DNA of 64,000 nucleotides from Candidatus Gottesmanbacteria bacterium UBA6580 (GTDB lineage Bacteria > Patescibacteriota > Microgenomatia > UBA10105 > UBA927), in NCBI GenBank assembly GCA_002433895.1, contig DJJA01000003.1, positions 376,881 to 440,880 of the forward strand, in the 5' to 3' direction. The notes under the pieces are model-generated. The model made no database searches. It saw nothing but the letters and a program-made list of their open reading frames with translations, and was not told the origin of the DNA. Each line of letters starts with the position of its first letter. Position 1 is the stretch's first letter. Positions 1-31,422 of the stretch are shown piece after piece. Position numbers and translations under genes: made by a program.

Positions 1-2417
1 CAAAAAGCCCAGACTTTACCGCCCCTCTTAACGTAACTCTTGAGATGGAAACGGGTACGGGTAAGACTTACGTTTACCTCCGCTCCATTTTAGAGCTATA
101 TCAAAAATATGGACTATCTAAGTTTATTATCGTCGTCCCTACGGTAGCCATTAAAGAGGGCGTTATGAAGTCCCTAGCTATCACTAAAGACCATTTTAAG
201 GGTCTGTATAACAACTTGTCCTATGAGTACTACGAGTATGTATCTACTAAGCTAATGACCGTCCGAATGTTTGCGCAGTCCTCTCACCTGCAAATTATGG
301 TCATTACAAAAGACGCTTTTAATAAAGATAAAAATATCATCCATAACAACCATGACCGCATGGGAGATAAACCAATTTCTCTTATCCAAAAGACTAACCC
401 TATCGTTATCTTAGACGAACCACAGAAGATGGGTGGAGAGGCTACCCAATGGGGCATAAAAGAGCTTAACCCCCTCATAGTACTTAGATACTCTGCTACG
501 CATAGAGATATTGAAAATCTGGTTTACAAGCTTACCCCTTTTGACGCCTATGCCAAAGGTCTAGTTAAAAAAATAGAACTAGCGACCGTTGTAGAGGAAA
601 GCGACCCAAATACCAAAAAGATTATTCTGGAGAATATCTACTCCTCTGGAAGTAGCCTAAAAGCCAAAATAAAGGTGTTCATAAAGCAAGCAACATCCGT
701 GCAACTCAAAACTATTACTGTTGGCTCTGGTGATAACTTAGCTACTAAATCAAAAAATCCATATTACGACGGCTTTACCGTCTCCGAGATTAACTTAGGT
801 AATAACTACATTCTTTTTTCTAATGGTCTAAAGGTGTATGTGGGTCAATCCTCTGTAAATGAGGATGAAATAGTACGCATGATGGTACGTGAGATAGTTT
901 TAGAACACTTGGAAAAAAAGCGAAAGTTTAACCCACTTGGGATTAAGACCCTCTCTCTTTTCTTCATCCACCGTGTAGACGACTACCTACCAGTAGACGG
1001 GTGGCTCCGCAAAATGTTTGAGGAAGAGTACCAGAAAGCTACCAATGCCGACTACCAAGAGTTTAAGACCGCAAGAGTTGACAAGGTACACTCTGGGTAC
1101 TTCTCAGAGATGAAAAAAACCTCCTCAATAGAAAATGACGAGAAAGCCTACGAGCTGATTATGAAAGATAAGGAAAAATTGCTCTCCTTAGATAATCCCG
1201 TGGAGTTTATCTTTTCCCATTCTGCCCTACGTGAGGGATGGGACAACCCCAATATCTTTAATATCTGTACCTTAGCTTACTCAACCTCTGATATTAAAAA
1301 AAGACAGGAAATCGGACGAGGCTTGCGTCTAGTGGTAAACCAGCAAGGAGACCGCATATACGACCGAGATATAAACGTACTTACCGTAGTTACCAACGAA
1401 AGCTACCAAAATTATGTATCTGAATTGCAGACCGAGTTTAGAGATGAGGCAGGAGAAAGCGCCCCACCTGTAGAGCATAAGAAAAAACGAGTTAGCCTAA
1501 CCCTAAAAGATGACGCATTAGCTAACAAGAGCTTCCAGAGCCTTTGGAAGTTACTAGCAAAGCGGGCTAAGTTTGTTGTCTCTATGCAAGAAGAGGAAAT
1601 AATAAGTAAGTGTGTAGATGAAATTAACAAAATTGACGAAAGTAATATCCGAGAAATTCGGGTACGCATTACTAAAACAGGAATAGACACACTTCTACTT
1701 GATGATATTAGAGGCAACATCGTAAGCGACCGAAGCTACGAAATCGGAGCCTCTAAACAGCTACCTAACATTATTGCCCTCCTCCAAGCCGATACTAAGC
1801 TCACCAAGAAAACCCTATTAGCCATACTCCAAAGGGTAAATAATTTTGACCTGTTTTTCAAAAACTCCTACCAGTATGCAAGCCTCGTTTCCTACGCCAT
1901 TAAAACCGTCATATCAGACCTAGCCTCTAAAGGTATTAGCTATGTAGAGATTAGCGACAATTACGGATTATCGCTTTTTAATAAAGAAGTCCAGACTTAC
2001 GAAAAGTATTTAGTAAAGCTAGAGAGCGCCAAGACCCTCTATAAAACAGCAAATAACGGACAAGTGGACGCAGTCATTATTGACCCCAGCCCGTCCGTAG
2101 AGGGTGTATCACAGCCAGAGAAAAGGTTTGCCGAGAACGCAGACCGCAACGATACGGTTAAGTTTTTCTTTAAGCTCCCAGACACCTACTCTATCGCAAC
2201 TCCCGCAGGGCAATATACACCAGACTGGGCGGTAGTAGTTGAAAATGGCGACCATAACCAAGTCTATTTTGTAGCAGAAACTAAGGATACTAATATCATT
2301 AGTAGTCTCCGCCAAGAGGAGCAGATAAAAATACTCTCTGCACGAGCTATGTTTAAGGAAGTCATGCCAGAGGTCATTTTCAAAGCTCCCGTAAGCGAGT
2401 TTAGCGACCTTGCATGA
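1..2417 (+). CDS. res: Type III restriction endonuclease Res subunit (helicase plus C-terminal PD-ExK nuclease); 5'-truncated at window edge, frame open to nt 3
   Basis: Walker A TGTGKT, DEPQ box, helicase motif QEIGRGLRL, C-terminal PDWAVVVE...VYFVAETKD nuclease motif; no stop upstream of first Met. Confidence 0.75.
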   Translation, partial: KSPDFTAPLNVTLEMETGTGKTYVYLRSILELYQKYGLSKFIIVVPTVAIKEGVMKSLAITKDHFKGLYNNLSYEYYEYVSTKLMTVRMFAQSSHLQIMVITKDAFNKDKNIIHNNHDRMGDKPISLIQKTNPIVILDEPQKMGGEATQWGIKELNPLIVLRYSATHRDIENLVYKLTPFDAYAKGLVKKIELATVVEESDPNTKKIILENIYSSGSSLKAKIKVFIKQATSVQLKTITVGSGDNLATKSKNPYYDGFTVSEINLGNNYILFSNGLKVYVGQSSVNEDEIVRMMVREIVLEHLEKKRKFNPLGIKTLSLFFIHRVDDYLPVDGWLRKMFEEEYQKATNADYQEFKTARVDKVHSGYFSEMKKTSSIENDEKAYELIMKDKEKLLSLDNPVEFIFSHSALREGWDNPNIFNICTLAYSTSDIKKRQEIGRGLRLVVNQQGDRIYDRDINVLTVVTNESYQNYVSELQTEFRDEAGESAPPVEHKKKRVSLTLKDDALANKSFQSLWKLLAKRAKFVVSMQEEEIISKCVDEINKIDESNIREIRVRITKTGIDTLLLDDIRGNIVSDRSYEIGASKQLPNIIALLQADTKLTKKTLLAILQRVNNFDLFFKNSYQYASLVSYAIKTVISDLASKGISYVEISDNYGLSLFNKEVQTYEKYLVKLESAKTLYKTANNGQVDAVIIDPSPSVEGVSQPEKRFAENADRNDTVKFFFKLPDTYSIATPAGQYTPDWAVVVENGDHNQVYFVAETKDTNIISSLRQEEQIKILSARAMFKEVMPEVIFKAPVSEFSDLA

Positions 2418-2584
2418 TAAGCCAAAAAAGTACTGATAATCTGAAAAAGATATTTAAGGAGGAGTACAAAGCCGACTTAACAGACGAAGAGGCAAAGGAA
2501 GCAGGTCAAAAGTTGGTGGACTACTTTAGCCTTTTAATAGAGATTGATAAAAAGGCAAAAATTGTTAGGAAAAATGAAATATAA
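2414..2584 (+). CDS. Small hypothetical protein (56 aa), translationally coupled to res via ATGA overlap
   Basis: ATG overlaps the res TGA stop; continuous 56-codon frame ending 3 nt before the recombinase ATG; no homology recognised. Confidence 0.3.
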   Translation: MISQKSTDNLKKIFKEEYKADLTDEEAKEAGQKLVDYFSLLIEIDKKAKIVRKNEI

Positions 2585-2586
2585 AT

Positions 2587-4203
<1,617 letters not shown>

Positions 4204-27098: not shown

Positions 27099-27323
27099 AC
27101 AAAAATCCCCACATTCTTACCAGCGCTTCATGCCGGAGAATATGGGGATTATGAATAATAGATTTTCCTCATACACGCTTGGATTGAAAAAGTGAATAAT
27201 TTAATGAATTCACTCCTTCAGAAAAAGCGTGTATAAGGACAAAATGTCGAAATTGGGTGTGAGACCAAAGAAAATACATGGTAAGCAGCAAGTTGCTTAG
27301 TGTTATTTCTTTGTGAGTCTCCT

Positions 27324-27371
27324 GCCCAAAAATAAAACTATGGAGACCTCTCCATAACGAGGTCTCCATAG
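27324..27371 (-). terminator. Intrinsic terminator (minus strand) after small Cys/His-rich ORF
   Basis: 11-bp perfect palindrome CTATGGAGACC/GGTCTCCATAG followed on the minus strand by UUUUAUUUUU. Confidence 0.6.
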
Positions 27372-27389
27372 AGAAGTTTGCCCCCACGC

Positions 27390-27659
27390 CTAATGTGGTT
27401 GTGTCCGCTGTCGACGCTTCGGTTCGTGGCGGTGTTCGTCGTGATGGCTATGGTCGGGGTGTCCTTTGGAACACCACGTGCAAGTATTTTCGCGACCCGG
27501 GGTCGGGGCAGAGCATCTACCACCTTTATGGTGTTTTTTGCTTCTACAGTTGCATGTTGCCACAGACGTTTGTGATTTGGGTGTCAACGCCTGGATGACT
27601 TGTAAAAACATTGATTGTTTTATGGTTACTGGAACTGAACCTGTTCGCCTCTTACTCAT
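27390..27659 (-). CDS. Small Cys/His-rich basic protein (89 aa), unknown function
   Basis: SD AGGAG 7 nt upstream of ATG; CxC...C...CxxC then HPDHSHHDEHRHE His-rich tail; intrinsic terminators on both sides; region is open in several frames, so coding status uncertain. Confidence 0.35.
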   Translation of the reverse strand: MSKRRTGSVPVTIKQSMFLQVIQALTPKSQTSVATCNCRSKKHHKGGRCSAPTPGRENTCTWCSKGHPDHSHHDEHRHEPKRRQRTQPH

Positions 27660-27775
27660 GATTGACTCCTCTTGCTAAATGACTTGCCCGGATAAAATGG
27701 TTGATCGTTAAATTTTTTCACTGCAGACTTCATAAGCAAACCTCTTTTTTGAATTTTTTCGGTGATGTTGTCGGA

Positions 27776-27815
27776 TAAGGAAAAAGACAGAAAAGGACAG
27801 GCTAATTTTCTGTCT
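27776..27815 (-). terminator. Intrinsic terminator (minus strand) after small ORF A
   Basis: AGACAGAAAA/TTTTCTGTCT 10-bp stem, 11-nt loop, U5 tail on the minus strand. Confidence 0.5.
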
Positions 27816-27865
27816 TTATCATTGTCCAAGAACTAACTCTCAAAATTGTTAAGGTGCCAAATACT

Positions 27866-28045
27866 TTACTCTTGTCCCTGTGCCGTTTGTGTGCCAGCAG
27901 CGTTGGCGCTCCCTGTGTCGGGTGCCATAGGAAATATGACCGTCACGGACTGCGCCTCGTTGGTGACGGATGCGATCATCCATGCCACCGGAGGCCGTTT
28001 CTCGGGTACTATTTCTGCCGCTAATTGTTTGTCCGTTTCGTTCAT
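27866..28045 (-). CDS. Small hypothetical protein (59 aa) with strong SD
   Basis: AAGGAG-N6-ATG ribosome binding site; MNETDKQLAAEIVPEKRPPVAWMIASV...; flanked by terminators; a Cys-rich plus-strand ORF overlaps and is the alternative. Confidence 0.35.
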   Translation of the reverse strand: MNETDKQLAAEIVPEKRPPVAWMIASVTNEAQSVTVIFPMAPDTGSANAAGTQTAQGQE

Positions 28046-28164
28046 GTATCTCCTTTGTGCTATCGCCATGTCTTGCTGTCCGCCTAATTCTGAGGCTCAC
28101 AGAACGACTATTGGCGGATTGATGGTTAGTACATTCGCTCGTCTGAACTCGTTTATTTTCTAAC

Positions 28165-28190
28165 CATCAAAAAACCCCTCTTTTGGAGGG
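28165..28190 (-). terminator. Intrinsic terminator / attenuator within the minus-strand leader
   Basis: CCCCUC-CAAAA-GAGGGG hairpin followed by UUUUUU on the minus strand, about 115 nt downstream of a consensus promoter and upstream of small ORF A. Confidence 0.55.
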
Positions 28191-28312
28191 GTTCGTGTGT
28201 TTGGTTTTAAAAAGTTTTTTAAGCTGCCATCACACGACCCCCCCGACATTTCGGAGGTTAATAAGGGTCATAAAGTGTGATTGCTGCCAAGATTTCATAG
28301 TCACAGTCAATT

Positions 28313-28341
28313 ATTATAAATAGACAACTTATCTCTTGTCA
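28313..28341 (-). promoter_or_regulatory. Consensus sigma70 promoter firing leftward (TTGACA-17-TATAAT)
   Basis: Reverse complement reads TTGACAagagataagttgtctatTTATAAT; -35 hexamer overlaps the -35 of the divergent aspS promoter. Confidence 0.5.
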
Positions 28342-28363
28342 ACCGGTAATCGGGCAAATATAA
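28335..28363 (+). promoter_or_regulatory. Sigma70 promoter for the T-box leader and aspS (TTGTCA-17-TATAAT)
   Basis: TTGTCAaccggtaatcgggcaaaTATAAT, perfect -10, 17-nt spacer. Confidence 0.55.
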
Positions 28364-28369
28364 TAAGAA

Positions 28370-28556
28370 ATGAAGTACGCGATGATGGCCTGACAAGCCG
28401 GAGTGGCCCGGGGTAACAACCGGAACGGGTATGCCCGTAATAGCTCTAATAAGATCCGCCTACGCAAAAGCTACGGCGAGATGAAATAAGGTGGTACCGC
28501 GAATTACCCGTTCGCCCTTATACTATTACTAGTAAGGAGAACGGGTTTGTTGTGTC
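28370..28556 (+). promoter_or_regulatory. T-box riboswitch leader, putative Asp specifier (GAC)
   Basis: T-box consensus AAUAAGGUGGUACCGCG at 28485-28502; terminator ACCCGUUC...GAACGGGU + UUUGUUGUGU; candidate specifier loop CCUGACAAG; directly upstream of aspS. Confidence 0.6.
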
Positions 28557-28570
28557 ATAATGATAGATAT

Positions 28571-30454
28571 ATGAGAACACTCGCGTCACAGGTATCGGCA
28601 TTAGAAGGAAAAACGGTTGTATTGCAGGGGTGGGTTCTTGCGCGGCGGGATCATGGCAAGATCATGTTCCTCGACCTCCGGGACCGTTCCGGTGTTGTGC
28701 AGCTTGTTGGAAGTAAATCATTGGGCGATGCGCACGCAGAAGATGTCATAACCGTCACAGGACTGGTGAAGAAGCGGCCAGAATCGATGGTAAATGAAAA
28801 AATTATTTCCGGTACCGTGGAAGTTGAGATACAGGAAATTTCGGTTATTTCCAAAGCCCGTGAGTTGCCGTTTCCCATAGACACTGACGGACACGAAGTA
28901 AATGAAGAAATCAGAGCCAAATACCGCTATCTGGATTTACGCCGTCCCAGGATGGCCCGTAATATCCGATTGCGGAGCAAAGTCGTCAATTTCATCCGTA
29001 ACTTTTTATCAAACCGCGATTTCGTTGAAATAGAAACGCCAGTGCTAACCAAAACGACCCCCGAAGGAGCGAGGGATTTCCTCGTGCCGTCACGTCTGCA
29101 GCCGGGAAAATTTTACGCACTTCCGCAGTCACCACAGCAGTATAAACAGCTTCTGATGGTTGCCGGATTTGAGCGGTATTTCCAGATTGCACGGTGTTTC
29201 CGTGATGAAGACCCCCGCCGTGACCGCGCGTATGGTGAGTTCACCCAGCTCGACATGGAAATGTCATTTGTGACGCAGGATGATATTTTAACGCTTACTG
29301 AGGAGATGTTTACCACCCTCATCCGCCTTATGTTTCCGGCCAAACACATTTCCCAAACTCCCTGGCCGAGGTTGTCACACCGGGAAGTCATGGAGAAGTA
29401 CGGCACTGACAAGCCGGATCTGCGAAAAGATAAAAATGATCCCGATGAATTGGCATTTAGCTGGACAGTTGATTTTCCGCTTTTTAATGAGCAAAAAGAT
29501 GATGATTTCTTTTACGGATCCGGTGGCGCAAAATTTGCGCCGAGCCACCATATGTTTACCGCACCGCATCCCGATGACATCCCGCTTCTTGATACCGATC
29601 CGCTGAAGGTGCGGGGACTGCAGCATGATTTGGTGCTGAACGGATTTGAGGTAGGTGGCGGGAGTATCCGTATCCATCAAGCGGAGGTACAAGCGAAGGT
29701 GTTTGACCTTATTGGATTTAGCGAAAAACAAAAGCAGGAGTTTTCCCACATGCTCACCGCGTTTAGTTATGGTGTGCCGCCACACGGTGGGATCGCGCCC
29801 GGCATCGACCGCCTGATGATGGCGCTTTTGGGAGAGCCGAGCGTGCGGGAGGTCATGGCATTTCCGACATCTGCGTCAGGTGGGACAAGTGTCATGGACG
29901 CGCCCAGTAACGCTTCACCCGAGCAGCTCGTTGAGCTTGGCATTTCCGTAGCAACAATGGGAAACACGAAAGAAGGAGGAGGTAAAGCGGTGTACGAGCG
30001 GATAGTCGGGGACATTAAGGCACTTAAATTGGCATTTGAGCCGTACGAACACGAAGCAGTGCGTACTTCAGAAGATGCCGCCAAAATCCGGAATACGCCA
30101 CTTTATGAAGGCGCAAAAGCCCTCGTGCTGTATGCGGATGAAAAACCGGTCATGGTAGTTGTTCCCGGTGACCGTAAGCTCGATATGAAAGCGTTTAAAT
30201 CGCAGTATCACATCCGTGACCTACGGATGGCAACACCCGCCCAGGTGGAGGAAGTGACCGGTGTTACTATCGGCGCGGTGCCGCCATTTGGACATATATT
30301 TGGCATACCTGCATACATGGACGCAGCGTTTAAGAAAAACTCGCACGTTTCATTTAATGCCGGTCTTCATACCCATTCCATACGGATGAGTGAAAAAGAT
30401 TATGAAAAGATGGCGAAGCCGACTATTGGTGAGTTTTCTAAAATACTTGAATGA
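28571..30454 (+). CDS. aspS: Aspartate--tRNA ligase (GAD-less) fused in frame to a C-terminal YbaK/ProX-type aminoacyl-tRNA deacylase domain
   Basis: N-terminal OB anticodon domain, class II motifs 1 to 3 (FRDED, GGGSIR, GIDRLMMAL), normal AspRS C-terminal SPEQLVELGISV; then about 165 extra residues with a YbaK-like order of motifs (YEHE..KALVL..VVPGDRKLDMKAF..GAVPPFG..SFNAG); ATG at 28571 preferred over the track TTG at 28547. Confidence 0.85.
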   Translation: MRTLASQVSALEGKTVVLQGWVLARRDHGKIMFLDLRDRSGVVQLVGSKSLGDAHAEDVITVTGLVKKRPESMVNEKIISGTVEVEIQEISVISKARELPFPIDTDGHEVNEEIRAKYRYLDLRRPRMARNIRLRSKVVNFIRNFLSNRDFVEIETPVLTKTTPEGARDFLVPSRLQPGKFYALPQSPQQYKQLLMVAGFERYFQIARCFRDEDPRRDRAYGEFTQLDMEMSFVTQDDILTLTEEMFTTLIRLMFPAKHISQTPWPRLSHREVMEKYGTDKPDLRKDKNDPDELAFSWTVDFPLFNEQKDDDFFYGSGGAKFAPSHHMFTAPHPDDIPLLDTDPLKVRGLQHDLVLNGFEVGGGSIRIHQAEVQAKVFDLIGFSEKQKQEFSHMLTAFSYGVPPHGGIAPGIDRLMMALLGEPSVREVMAFPTSASGGTSVMDAPSNASPEQLVELGISVATMGNTKEGGGKAVYERIVGDIKALKLAFEPYEHEAVRTSEDAAKIRNTPLYEGAKALVLYADEKPVMVVVPGDRKLDMKAFKSQYHIRDLRMATPAQVEEVTGVTIGAVPPFGHIFGIPAYMDAAFKKNSHVSFNAGLHTHSIRMSEKDYEKMAKPTIGEFSKILE

Positions 30455-30483
30455 CGCACGCATTGATAGACCGCATAAAAAAG

Positions 30484-31422
30484 ATGTGGGTGTTGAGATA
30501 TTGGGATAAGCTGCTGTTTGCAGTAGTGTTTATCCTATTTTTTGTGTTTTCTCCCGGGGTAAAGATACTTGAGCGGATTTCGTCTTCCGCAGGACCGCTT
30601 ACCAGAGTGTTGCCGTTTGCAACCCCTTCTCCCGCACCGTATCCTACCAACACCACGGGAATATACCCCGGATTTGAAATATCAGCAGCCGGCGTGGTGG
30701 TATATGATGTCGCAAGTGGTGTGACGCTTTTTGGTAGAAACACGGATGTATCGCTTTTTCCTGCTTCGACAACCAAAATTATGACGGCGTTGGTGGCGTT
30801 AGAGCATTATGGGCTTGACGACGTTGTGCATGTCCAGACGGTCGCGAACACAGGAGCGGTGATGGGCCTGGTGCCCGGGGAGAGGATTACGGTTGAAAAT
30901 TTGCTGTACGGCGCGCTCGTGCAATCGGGTAACGATGCTGCGTGGGCGCTGGCAGAACATTTTCCCGGTGGTGTGGAAAAGTTTGTAGAGGCGATGAACA
31001 AAAAAGCCGCTGATCTTCATTTAGTAAATACGCACTTTACCAACCCCGTCGGTTTTGATGATCCCAATCATACGATGACCGCGATTGACCTTACACGGCT
31101 TGCCGCATATGCGCTGACGAATAAAACGATTGTAAAAATTGTTGCTATACCACAGATTACTATTTCAGATGTGACACACACACAATTTCACCCACTGACG
31201 AATGTAAATACGCTGCTCGGGAAAATCCCCGGAGTTGCCGGGATAAAGACAGGCTGGACAGAAGAAGCGGGTGAAAATCTGGTAACGCTCGTAGAGCGTG
31301 ATAACCACAAAGTGATTATTGTGGTGCTTAAGAGCCTCAACCGTTTCGCTGATACTGAAGGACTTATTAACTGGGTGTTTGGTAATTATTCGTGGCAGAA
31401 CTACAATCAGGAAGCGGAGTGA
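30484..31422 (+). CDS. D-alanyl-D-alanine carboxypeptidase (serine-type, PBP5/6 family)
   Basis: SxxK ASTTK, SxN SGND, KTG KTGWT; N-terminal TM; track ORF begins at 30451 overlapping the aspS stop. Confidence 0.8.
   Translation: MWVLRYWDKLLFAVVFILFFVFSPGVKILERISSSAGPLTRVLPFATPSPAPYPTNTTGIYPGFEISAAGVVVYDVASGVTLFGRNTDVSLFPASTTKIMTALVALEHYGLDDVVHVQTVANTGAVMGLVPGERITVENLLYGALVQSGNDAAWALAEHFPGGVEKFVEAMNKKAADLHLVNTHFTNPVGFDDPNHTMTAIDLTRLAAYALTNKTIVKIVAIPQITISDVTHTQFHPLTNVNTLLGKIPGVAGIKTGWTEEAGENLVTLVERDNHKVIIVVLKSLNRFADTEGLINWVFGNYSWQNYNQEAE

Follow-up and report, generated by a model that had tools for sequence, protein, structure and literature searches.

An aspartyl-tRNA synthetase joined to a YbaK/ProX-fold editing domain in Patescibacteria

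The aspS locus of Candidatus Gottesmanbacteria bacterium UBA6580 raises the question of why aspartyl-tRNA synthetase (AspRS), which to our knowledge has been treated as a synthetase without need for proofreading, carries a domain of the aminoacyl-tRNA deacylase type at its C-terminus. The locus lies in a stretch of 64,000 nucleotides (nt), referred to here as the window (GenBank assembly GCA_002433895.1, contig DJJA01000003.1, positions 376,881 to 440,880, forward strand). A sequence-only reading of the window had placed at 29960-30454 an in-frame extension of AspRS that resembled the free-standing deacylase YbaK. The reality of this fusion, its distribution, the type of the appended domain and its possible function were explored. 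The fusion is genuine and lineage-wide in Patescibacteria (Microgenomates and neighbours), and a proofreading function of the domain on the tRNAs handled by AspRS is considered somewhat probable.

The fused gene and its occurrence

According to the list of open reading frames (ORFs) and the raw sequence of the window, a single plus-strand ORF occupies 28547..30454 and encodes 635 amino acids (aa) from the TTG codon at 28547. The start MRTLA, at the ATG codon at 28571, is kept in 25 homologues and gives a protein of 627 aa; from this conservation, ATG 28571 is likely the true start. The frame is unbroken from the end of AspRS (GIDRLMMAL ... SPEQLVELGISV) into about 165 extra residues with no stop codon, and the motifs YEHE, GAKALVLY, VVPGDRKLDMKAF, GAVPPFG and SFNAG were all read in the extension. 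The protein begins with an anticodon-binding domain of the OB type, followed by the AspRS core (class IIb); a variable linker, some 35 aa long, then leads to the PF04073 editing domain. The gene and its parts are as follows.

28571..30454, plus strand: aspS-editing fusion gene, 627 codons plus stop (635 aa from the alternative upstream TTG 28547)
28616..28849, plus strand: OB-fold anticodon-binding domain, residues 16-93 (Pfam PF01336, tRNA_anti-codon, E=3.6e-11)
28901..29869, plus strand: class IIb catalytic core, residues 111-433 (Pfam PF00152, tRNA-synt_2, E=1e-111)
29870..29977, plus strand: C-terminal tail of AspRS (bacterial type) and variable linker, residues 434-469
29978..30451, plus strand: YbaK/ProX-fold (INS superfamily) aminoacyl-tRNA editing domain, residues 470-627 (Pfam, AlphaFold2 (AF2) and Foldseek)

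The in-frame C-terminal extension of the deacylase type was borne out by the one stop-free ORF and by Pfam, and the structured domain (residues 470-627, nt 29978-30451) agreed with the position first proposed for it. The profile PF04073 (tRNA_edit) matched residues 494-613 with E=1e-30 and 106.8 bits against a cutoff of 25.5, and 122 of the 123 profile positions were covered, which places the extension in the YbaK/ProX superfamily. Two genes can be joined in error when a stop codon is missed, a frame is shifted or an assembly is chimeric, and a minority of relatives truly have two genes that overlap by 4 nt or lie a few bases apart (L004-L006; 9 of 78 loci), but such an artefact is practically excluded because the same stop-free fusion ORF was found in 69 independent species-level assemblies and in >115 protein clusters (NCBI, JGI, ENA, Logan), with the position of the linker conserved among the fusions.

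The protein clusters (>115, at 63-99% identity) were obtained in a search of 5.8 billion proteins and share all three Pfam domains. The named clusters were from Patescibacteria, Gottesmanbacteria or Woesebacteria. These proteins are already in public databases with a precomputed Pfam architecture, where they are named only 'aspartate--tRNA ligase'. The genomic distribution was evaluated by scanning one genome per GTDB species with two editing-domain peptide patterns taken from close relatives. A total of 78 loci was obtained, spanning 39-87% identity to the window domain, and all of them belong to Patescibacteria, by naming or by synteny with named loci. Among the groups were Gottesman-, Woese-, Roizman-, Shapiro-, Chisholm- and Amesbacteria, WWE3, Paceibacterota and Saccharimonadales. 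The aspS gene was located directly upstream on the same strand at 78/78 loci, a figure valid for this clade only because the patterns came from close relatives. AspRS and the editing domain were fused in frame in one stop-free ORF at 69 of the 78 loci, so that the fusion sought in related genomes was found there, and they were encoded by separate genes, adjacent or nearby, at the remaining nine. Most of these nine split pairs overlap or sit a few bases apart, and the split form with a 4-nt overlap occurred in three independent assemblies of one organism.

Two observations concern the database records of these loci. Many metagenome-assembled genome records that hold the gene order recJ-aspS-edit-dac-gltX (L019, L022, L024-L026, L028, L029 and many others) are titled 'uncultured Gammaproteobacteria' or 'Pseudomonadales', and these titles look like placeholder or wrong labels. 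In GCA_023379025.1 (L001, 3561-5465), only the last 154 of the 634 aspS-edit codons are annotated, as 'hypothetical protein'; therefore, some seemingly free-standing database entries are truncated calls of fusions.

The editing domain and the synthetase bodies joined to it

The AF2 model of the isolated domain had a pLDDT of 92.7 and a pTM of 0.87. Foldseek returned 37 matches at E<=1e-3, all of which were YbaK/ProX-fold chains, and the top TM values were 0.81-0.87. The set comprised free YbaK/ProX proteins, designs based on 2CX5, ProRS INS domains and two larger proteins (SadB 9qzk and Maqu_0641 3mem). The best structural match was ProX of Thermus thermophilus (TTHA1699, 2z0k/2cx5; TM 0.81/0.86, rmsd 2.1-2.2, with 2.1 for 2CX5), and the other matches included lpg1207 (3op6), APE2540 (1wdv) and YbaK (1dbu/2dxa). 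When the solved chains were ranked with the family profile, 3op6 obtained 114 bits, followed by 2cx5 (103), 1wdv (85), YbaK (71/69), ProRS INS (56/49) and ProXp-ala (44/42). The score of 3op6 in the single-sequence comparison was 63 bits, which made it the best solved sequence relative as well. The window family is thus further from INS and ProXp-ala than from 3OP6 and 2CX5, and 2CX5, which is of the ProXp-x type, is second to 3OP6 by sequence profile at about 25% identity.

Two subfamilies were tried and rejected. YbaK proper, the Cys-tRNAPro deacylase, was represented by TIGR00011 (62.1 bits against a cutoff of 153.25) and NF007951 (29.1 bits against 243). With the family profile, ProXp-ala (5VXB, 1VJF, 1VKI) reached 42-44 bits, whereas YbaK reached 69-71 and INS 49-56, and its representatives were absent among the single-sequence matches at E<=0.01. 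The domain is neither YbaK proper nor ProXp-ala because the YbaK cutoffs failed and because of the profile ranking. The resemblance to YbaK that had been noted in the sequence was therefore upheld for superfamily and fold, and not for orthology. From profiles and models, the domain appears to be ProXp-x/lpg1207-like, with lpg1207 (3OP6) and ProXp-x (2CX5) as its nearest solved relatives.

ProXp-x is an Abu-tRNA (2-aminobutyryl-tRNA) deacylase with weak activity on Ala-tRNAPro and a preference for A73, for which 2CX5 is the representative (PMC11295145). The motifs RT..AA, K, PGD/GK.RLD, LR.ATP.EV, IG.VPP.GH and PAY.D are common to 2CX5 and the window family. The two differ in that Arg507 is replaced by Val in 2CX5 and in that the domain is bound to AspRS here, whereas 2CX5 is a free, single-domain protein acting in trans. 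The motifs GA(V/M)PPFG and FNAG are shared with the uncharacterised lpg1207 of Legionella pneumophila, which is free-standing and has Ala at the position of Arg507. The fold, the lysine and the GXXXP loop are also shared with YbaK, which is non-orthologous. Moreover, the same superfamily holds ProXp-7, -8 and -9, which were listed as uncharacterised in a 2024 review (PMC11295145).

The conserved residues were evaluated in 79 domains with 39-100% identity. H494, R507, G514, K516, A517, M553, G568, P572 and G598 were invariant in 79/79, and G574 was present in 78/79. The positions of most interest are given below.

30089..30091, plus strand: Arg507 codon, a clade-specific basic residue 9 residues ahead of Lys516
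30116..30118, plus strand: Lys516 codon (in GAKAL), counterpart of the conserved editing lysine of YbaK and INS
30272..30292, plus strand: Gly568-Ala-Val-Pro-Pro572-Phe-Gly574, the glycine-rich GXXXP substrate loop, which aligns with GGISPLG of Escherichia coli YbaK

K516 aligns with the Lys of 'YKTL' in E. coli YbaK, and the conserved editing lysine is taken here to be K46 in YbaK and K279 in E. coli ProRS. The invariant lysine and the GXXXP loop favour an active hydrolase over a degenerate binding module, and the domain is predicted to be a catalytically competent deacylase. Other forms were observed among the proteins of the family, namely three tandem editing-domain copies (P0174, P0197, P0212), a fusion to RuvX (P0195) and a fusion to the GmrSD_N nuclease domain (P0210). 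A further clade (P0250, P0254, P0263, P0277, P0302, P0310, P0314) has an unannotated N-terminal extension of 100-150 aa.

The N-terminal 460 residues of the window protein scored 602 bits with the aspartate--tRNA ligase model NF001750 of NCBIfam (cutoff 443), and TIGR00459 for bacterial AspRS gave 540 bits (cutoff 374). The class II and Asp-binding motifs QSPQQYK, FRDED, SHHMF, GGGSIRIH and GIDR were read in the sequence and are canonical, indicating that the protein is a bona fide AspRS. Pfam gave no match to the GAD insertion (PF02938) in the window protein, and the bacterial aspS models of NCBIfam matched it in two stretches, jumping over the GAD region. Its AspRS core has about 460 aa, compared with about 590 aa, and the GAD insertion of about 130 aa is replaced by residues ~286-300. 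The Asp-tRNA(Asn) ligase models NF003483/TIGR00458, which represent the archaeal type and are blind to bacterial-type non-discriminating (ND) enzymes, gave 229 bits against a cutoff of 353. The ND character that the sequence-only reading considered probable is here no more than a possibility for this protein. The His of RRDHG, corresponding to H31 of the Pseudomonas aeruginosa enzyme, is a tentative lead to an ND-AspRS signature. The score with the AspRS-GatC family NF009460 was 415 bits against a cutoff of 1379. Beyond the core, the pLDDT was below 50 over residues 430-469 of the full-length AF2 model, and both length and sequence varied from about residue 458, past ...ELGISV, in the 26 fusions compared; the linker is probably flexible.

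The editing domain is not confined to one kind of synthetase body. Among the 69 fusions, 51 had a GAD-less bacterial body, 17 an archaeal-type Asp-tRNA(Asn) ligase body and one a GAD-containing bacterial body. When the partner AspRSs of all 78 loci were considered, the GAD-less bacterial type was the commonest (53), the archaeal type was found at 24, and GAD was absent in 77/78. The four full-length archaeal-type bodies that were scanned all exceeded the Asp-tRNA(Asn) ligase cutoff of 353 (P0175, 508; L004, 510; L034, 467; L065, 493). The genes of the synteny block are arranged in the order recJ - aspS-edit - dac - unknown - gltX, where dac encodes a D-Ala-D-Ala carboxypeptidase (DD-carboxypeptidase). 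Two Gottesmanbacteria loci with the same record name and the same syntenic spot have different bodies, bacterial in L031 and archaeal-type in L034. Likewise, the Roizmanbacteria loci L062 and L065 have bacterial GAD-less and archaeal-type bodies, respectively, both with an orthologous editing domain. These differences within a preserved synteny suggest in-situ replacement of the synthetase body.

The association was also found outside the synteny block. GAD-containing fusions of AspRS and the editing domain occurred at the Shapirobacteria locus L073 and on an unrelated contig (L007, 744 aa), where GatC and GatA lie 3.3 kb downstream of the fusion. In a DPANN archaeon (L010), a bacterial-type AspRS gene, an ORF of 107 aa and a free editing gene stand in series on the same strand, and a true AsnRS gene is located about 1.3 kb beyond the editing gene. 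Hence, GAD-containing AspRSs carry or adjoin the editing domain in three cases (L073, L007, L010). The coupling of the editing domain to AspRS appears to be under selection. Its persistence through replacement of the body is the main argument for a functional link to AspRS. The comparative data thereby strengthen the tie presupposed by the cis or trans editing, or the recruitment to the Asp-tRNA channel, that the sequence-only reading had suggested as roles.

Possible functions of the tethered domain

An active deacylase that is tethered to AspRS and performs hydrolytic post-transfer proofreading, with its tRNA specificity taken from AspRS, is the function that we consider moderately likely. 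Free YbaK has no tRNA specificity of its own and must bind ProRS to act on Cys-tRNAPro, and INS acts in cis (reviews including PMC11295145). Because free YbaK borrows its specificity from ProRS and INS acts in cis, tethering may direct the domain to the tRNAs handled by AspRS. The domain would thus correspond to a permanently attached version of free YbaK, which depends on the ProRS.tRNAPro complex for finding its substrate. Once aminoacylation has taken place, the tethered domain would sample the 3' end of the tRNA that is bound to AspRS or has just been released by it. The sampled tRNAs would be tRNAAsp, plus tRNAAsn if the AspRS is ND, and Lys516 and the GXXXP loop would assist in hydrolysing the unwanted ester. 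The data show what the domain is, its predicted fold, its conserved motifs and its lasting coupling to AspRS; by analogy with these systems, we infer that it is active, that its targets are tRNAs bound to AspRS, and which ester it removes.

This arrangement was compared with known systems. ProRS with INS, or with ProXp-ala joined to it, has the same PF04073 fold superfamily, conserved Lys and GXXXP loop, and the covalent tie to a class II synthetase likewise allows tRNA selection to be borrowed. The partner here is AspRS (class IIb) instead of ProRS, and the domain is C-terminal via a flexible linker, whereas INS lies between motifs 2 and 3 and ProXp-ala is N-terminal of ProRS. YbaK offers the same idea of specificity borrowed from a synthetase, through the ProRS.YbaK.tRNAPro ternary complex, while the association here is covalent and with AspRS. 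In the AspRS-GatC fusion (NF009460), an accessory module for Asp/Asn-tRNA is also found at the C-terminus of a bacterial-type AspRS; the appended module is GatC there and a deacylase-type domain here. As in the cis-editing class II synthetases (ProRS, ThrRS, AlaRS and PheRS), the editing domain is on the same polypeptide.

In a 2024 review, the members of the INS/YbaK superfamily are single-domain proteins except INS, the sole variants listed are a C-terminal domain in plants and, in some protists, ProXp-ala N-terminal to ProRS, and class II editing domains are depicted only for ThrRS, AlaRS, ProRS and PheRS (PMC11295145). The sequence-only reading was aware of no described fusion of this domain to AspRS, and a search of the full-text literature, in which coverage of subscription journals is limited, likewise found no description of an AspRS-YbaK/ProX fusion. 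The fusion is a new combination of known parts (a class IIb AspRS and an INS-superfamily domain), undescribed rather than undiscovered. It suggests proofreading in a synthetase that had been believed to do without it. A lasting tie between deacylase and AspRS across a large radiation, despite the exchange of the body, would imply an uncharacterised selective pressure on the Asp/Asn branch of translation, for which leakage of Asp-tRNAAsn, an unknown misacylation and D-Asp are candidates. Knowledge of the function would add to the known editing solutions, and it would bear on translation accuracy in genome-reduced organisms that scavenge amino acids.

The leading specific candidate for the substrate is Asp-tRNAAsn that escapes the amidotransferase, the unamidated form being cleared, or perhaps held, by the domain. 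A second candidate is a non-cognate or D-aminoacyl group on tRNAAsp. The former is proposed because 77/78 partners are without GAD and 24/78 are of the archaeal type. Mischarging of tRNAAsn with Asp has toxic effects and can lead to misincorporation, and overproduction of ND-AspRS is toxic in E. coli (PMC3367201). According to one proposal, GAD assists bacterial ND-AspRS in keeping Asp-tRNAAsn bound until GatCAB arrives, and no retention of Asp-tRNAAsn was seen for the GAD-less archaeal-type AspRS of T. thermophilus (PMC3367201). An editing site that polices the identity of the tRNA and not of the amino acid, hydrolysing released, un-amidated Asp-tRNAAsn (or D-Asp-tRNAAsp) and replacing, in these GAD-less AspRSs, the kinetic retention proposed for bacterial transamidosomes, is only a tentative and rather unlikely version of the proposal. 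If true, it would be the first dedicated editing site of a class IIb synthetase and a new quality control for the indirect Asn-tRNA pathway, and such control would occur widely among Patescibacteria, and in some DPANN archaea as well.

Several points weigh against proofreading by the AspRS-bound domain, in addition to the restriction of the aspS linkage figure to one clade. We know of no need for editing by AspRS. Bacterial AspRS can activate Glu and reportedly yields only correct Glu-tRNAGlu (PMC6523644); therefore, no misacylation product is known. If Asp-tRNAAsn were hydrolysed in cis, this would be in competition with transamidation. The domain co-occurs with GatC/GatA in one case (L007) and with AsnRS in another (L010), so that the two do not point to one common pathway. 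The existence of GAD-containing partner AspRSs speaks against the Asp-tRNAAsn proposal, and the specifier of the T-box-like leader upstream of the fusion gene is Asp, not Asn. Furthermore, the full-length AF2 model had a pTM of 0.47 and gave no confident interdomain pose. The remaining objections concern the partners of the domain and are taken up with the first alternative. As for the genomic context of the pathway, no AsnRS, GatCAB, dtd or ProRS genes were found within the 64-kb window, and a homologue search seeded with the DPANN AsnRS gave only DPANN-type matches among those with names.

The domain may instead be a general ProXp-x-like trans-editing factor, acting for example on Abu-, Ala-, Ser-, Thr- or Cys-tRNAs of other synthetases, a possibility that deserves attention although we regard it as unlikely. 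Adjacency to aspS would then reflect a conserved operon, the fusion would result from the gene compaction common in such small genomes, and AspRS would provide expression and perhaps stability, but would not select the substrate. The closest characterised structural relative is the ProXp-x representative 2CX5, and ProXp-x acts on Abu-tRNAs of several synthetases (PMC11295145). The free homologues are called 'Ala-tRNA(Pro) deacylase' by JGI, a label that is unsupported by the profile ranking. The whole family comprised 3380 representatives at E<=1e-3, and in 134 of the best 150 the editing domain was accompanied by neither AspRS nor DD-carboxypeptidase sequence. The majority of the 134 stand free, with a length of about 155 aa, and the rest comprise some fragments at contig ends and a few tandem or otherwise fused forms. 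No aspS was found near the more distant free-standing homologues L011-L015. The domain is also joined to DD-carboxypeptidase, RuvX and GmrSD_N, the latter two among metagenomic representatives, and such fusions in compact genomes indicate that some fusions may be neutral. Neighbouring genes of the block overlap by 4 nt, so that loss of a stop codon easily makes a fusion. On the other hand, AspRS fusions or fragments thereof were the commonest multidomain form (14 of the best 150, compared with 2, 1 and 1 for the other partners), and three different AspRS architectures were present among the fusions. A link to AspRS was also seen at loci that lack the recJ-aspS-edit-dac order (L007, L010), and the fused state is kept in 69 of the 78 species, which would be hard to explain if it were neutral.

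A doubtful alternative is that the domain is a non-hydrolytic binder of the tRNA 3' end, which retains Asp-tRNAAsn or hands it to GatCAB in place of GAD, or which adds tRNA affinity. The same absence of GAD in 77 of the 78 partner AspRSs would agree with this, as would the proposed role of GAD as an Asp-tRNAAsn trap and the non-retaining GAD-less archaeal-type enzyme of T. thermophilus (PMC3367201). That an appended domain can bind tRNA is shown by the C-terminal domain of plant ProXp-ala (PMC11295145). However, the strict invariance of the lysine and the GXXXP loop argues for retained chemistry, and the domain is carried or adjoined by GAD-containing AspRSs too (L073, L007, L010).

A still smaller probability is assigned to an analogue of D-aminoacyl-tRNA deacylase that removes D-Asp or other D-residues and is tied to cell-wall metabolism. 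E. coli AspRS has been reported, like certain other synthetases, to charge a D-amino acid, in its case D-Asp. The downstream gene in question is the following.

30451..31422, plus strand: D-Ala-D-Ala carboxypeptidase gene (Peptidase_S11; Pfam PF00768, E=2.7e-50)

Its start overlaps the stop of the fusion gene by 4 nt (ATGA), and it is a conserved partner in the operon. A DD-carboxypeptidase gene was found directly downstream at 73 of the 78 loci, so that aspS, edit and dac are linked there; dac is nearly as constant a neighbour as aspS, which also counts against a role specific to AspRS. Fusions of the editing domain to the carboxypeptidase exist. In P0189 and P0230, which are representatives of 50%-identity clusters, the domain is fused to the N-terminus of a membrane-anchored peptidase and not to AspRS. 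Both assemblies of the P0189 locus (L008, 5001-6461; L009, 1986-3446) show this edit-dac fusion, with a divergent aspS adjoining upstream. Against removal of D-residues, selection by chirality is not known for any enzyme of the YbaK fold, unrelated housekeeping genes (recJ, gltX) are part of the synteny block as well, and the DD-carboxypeptidase, with a membrane anchor at its N-terminus, is expected to work outside the cytoplasm.

The leader and other features of the window

The region upstream of the fusion gene contains a candidate regulatory element.

28373..28522, plus strand: T-box-like leader with an ultrashort stem I (Rfam RF00230, 42.2 bits, E=1.5e-7; gathering score 93)

Stem I has 7 nt in place of 78 model positions. 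Its terminal loop was read directly as CUGACAA, which contains the Asp codon GAC followed by a purine. The T-box motif AAUAAGGUGGUACCGCG is located at 28484-28500, and a terminator/sequestrator hairpin comes next, at 28508-28545. In a motif scan, a T-box core was found upstream of aspS in 11 related genomes (L016, L018, L025, L030, L041, L044, L074, L082, L083, L091, L092), and the loop contained UGACA wherever it was readable; no copy with a readable stem I loop had an Asn (AAC) specifier. Among these 11 Patescibacteria genomes, the core precedes both bacterial-type and archaeal-type aspS. Downstream of some copies there is a clear terminator; in others, a hairpin that covers AAGGAG takes this place. 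With Rfam at E<=0.01, no T-box was returned for six related loci. Neither the window nor 60 fetched loci contained a tRNA-Asp or tRNA-Asn gene.

Between recJ and the aspS leader, about 1.3 kb of the window (27100-28370) is without a long ORF. A long near-perfect inverted repeat, AGACAGAAAA...TTTTCTGTCT, forms a hairpin at 27768-27832 and gave chance-level Rfam matches to plant miRNA families. At the beginning of the window, 45-2417 encodes a helicase/endonuclease of the type III restriction-enzyme kind (ResIII + RE_endonuc), and a large serine recombinase is encoded at 2587-4149. At its 3' end, the recombinase gene shares sequence with a tRNA-Pro(GGG) gene (4130-4203) that lies on the opposite strand, and the layout at 45-4203 is typical of a mobile element integrated at a tRNA gene.

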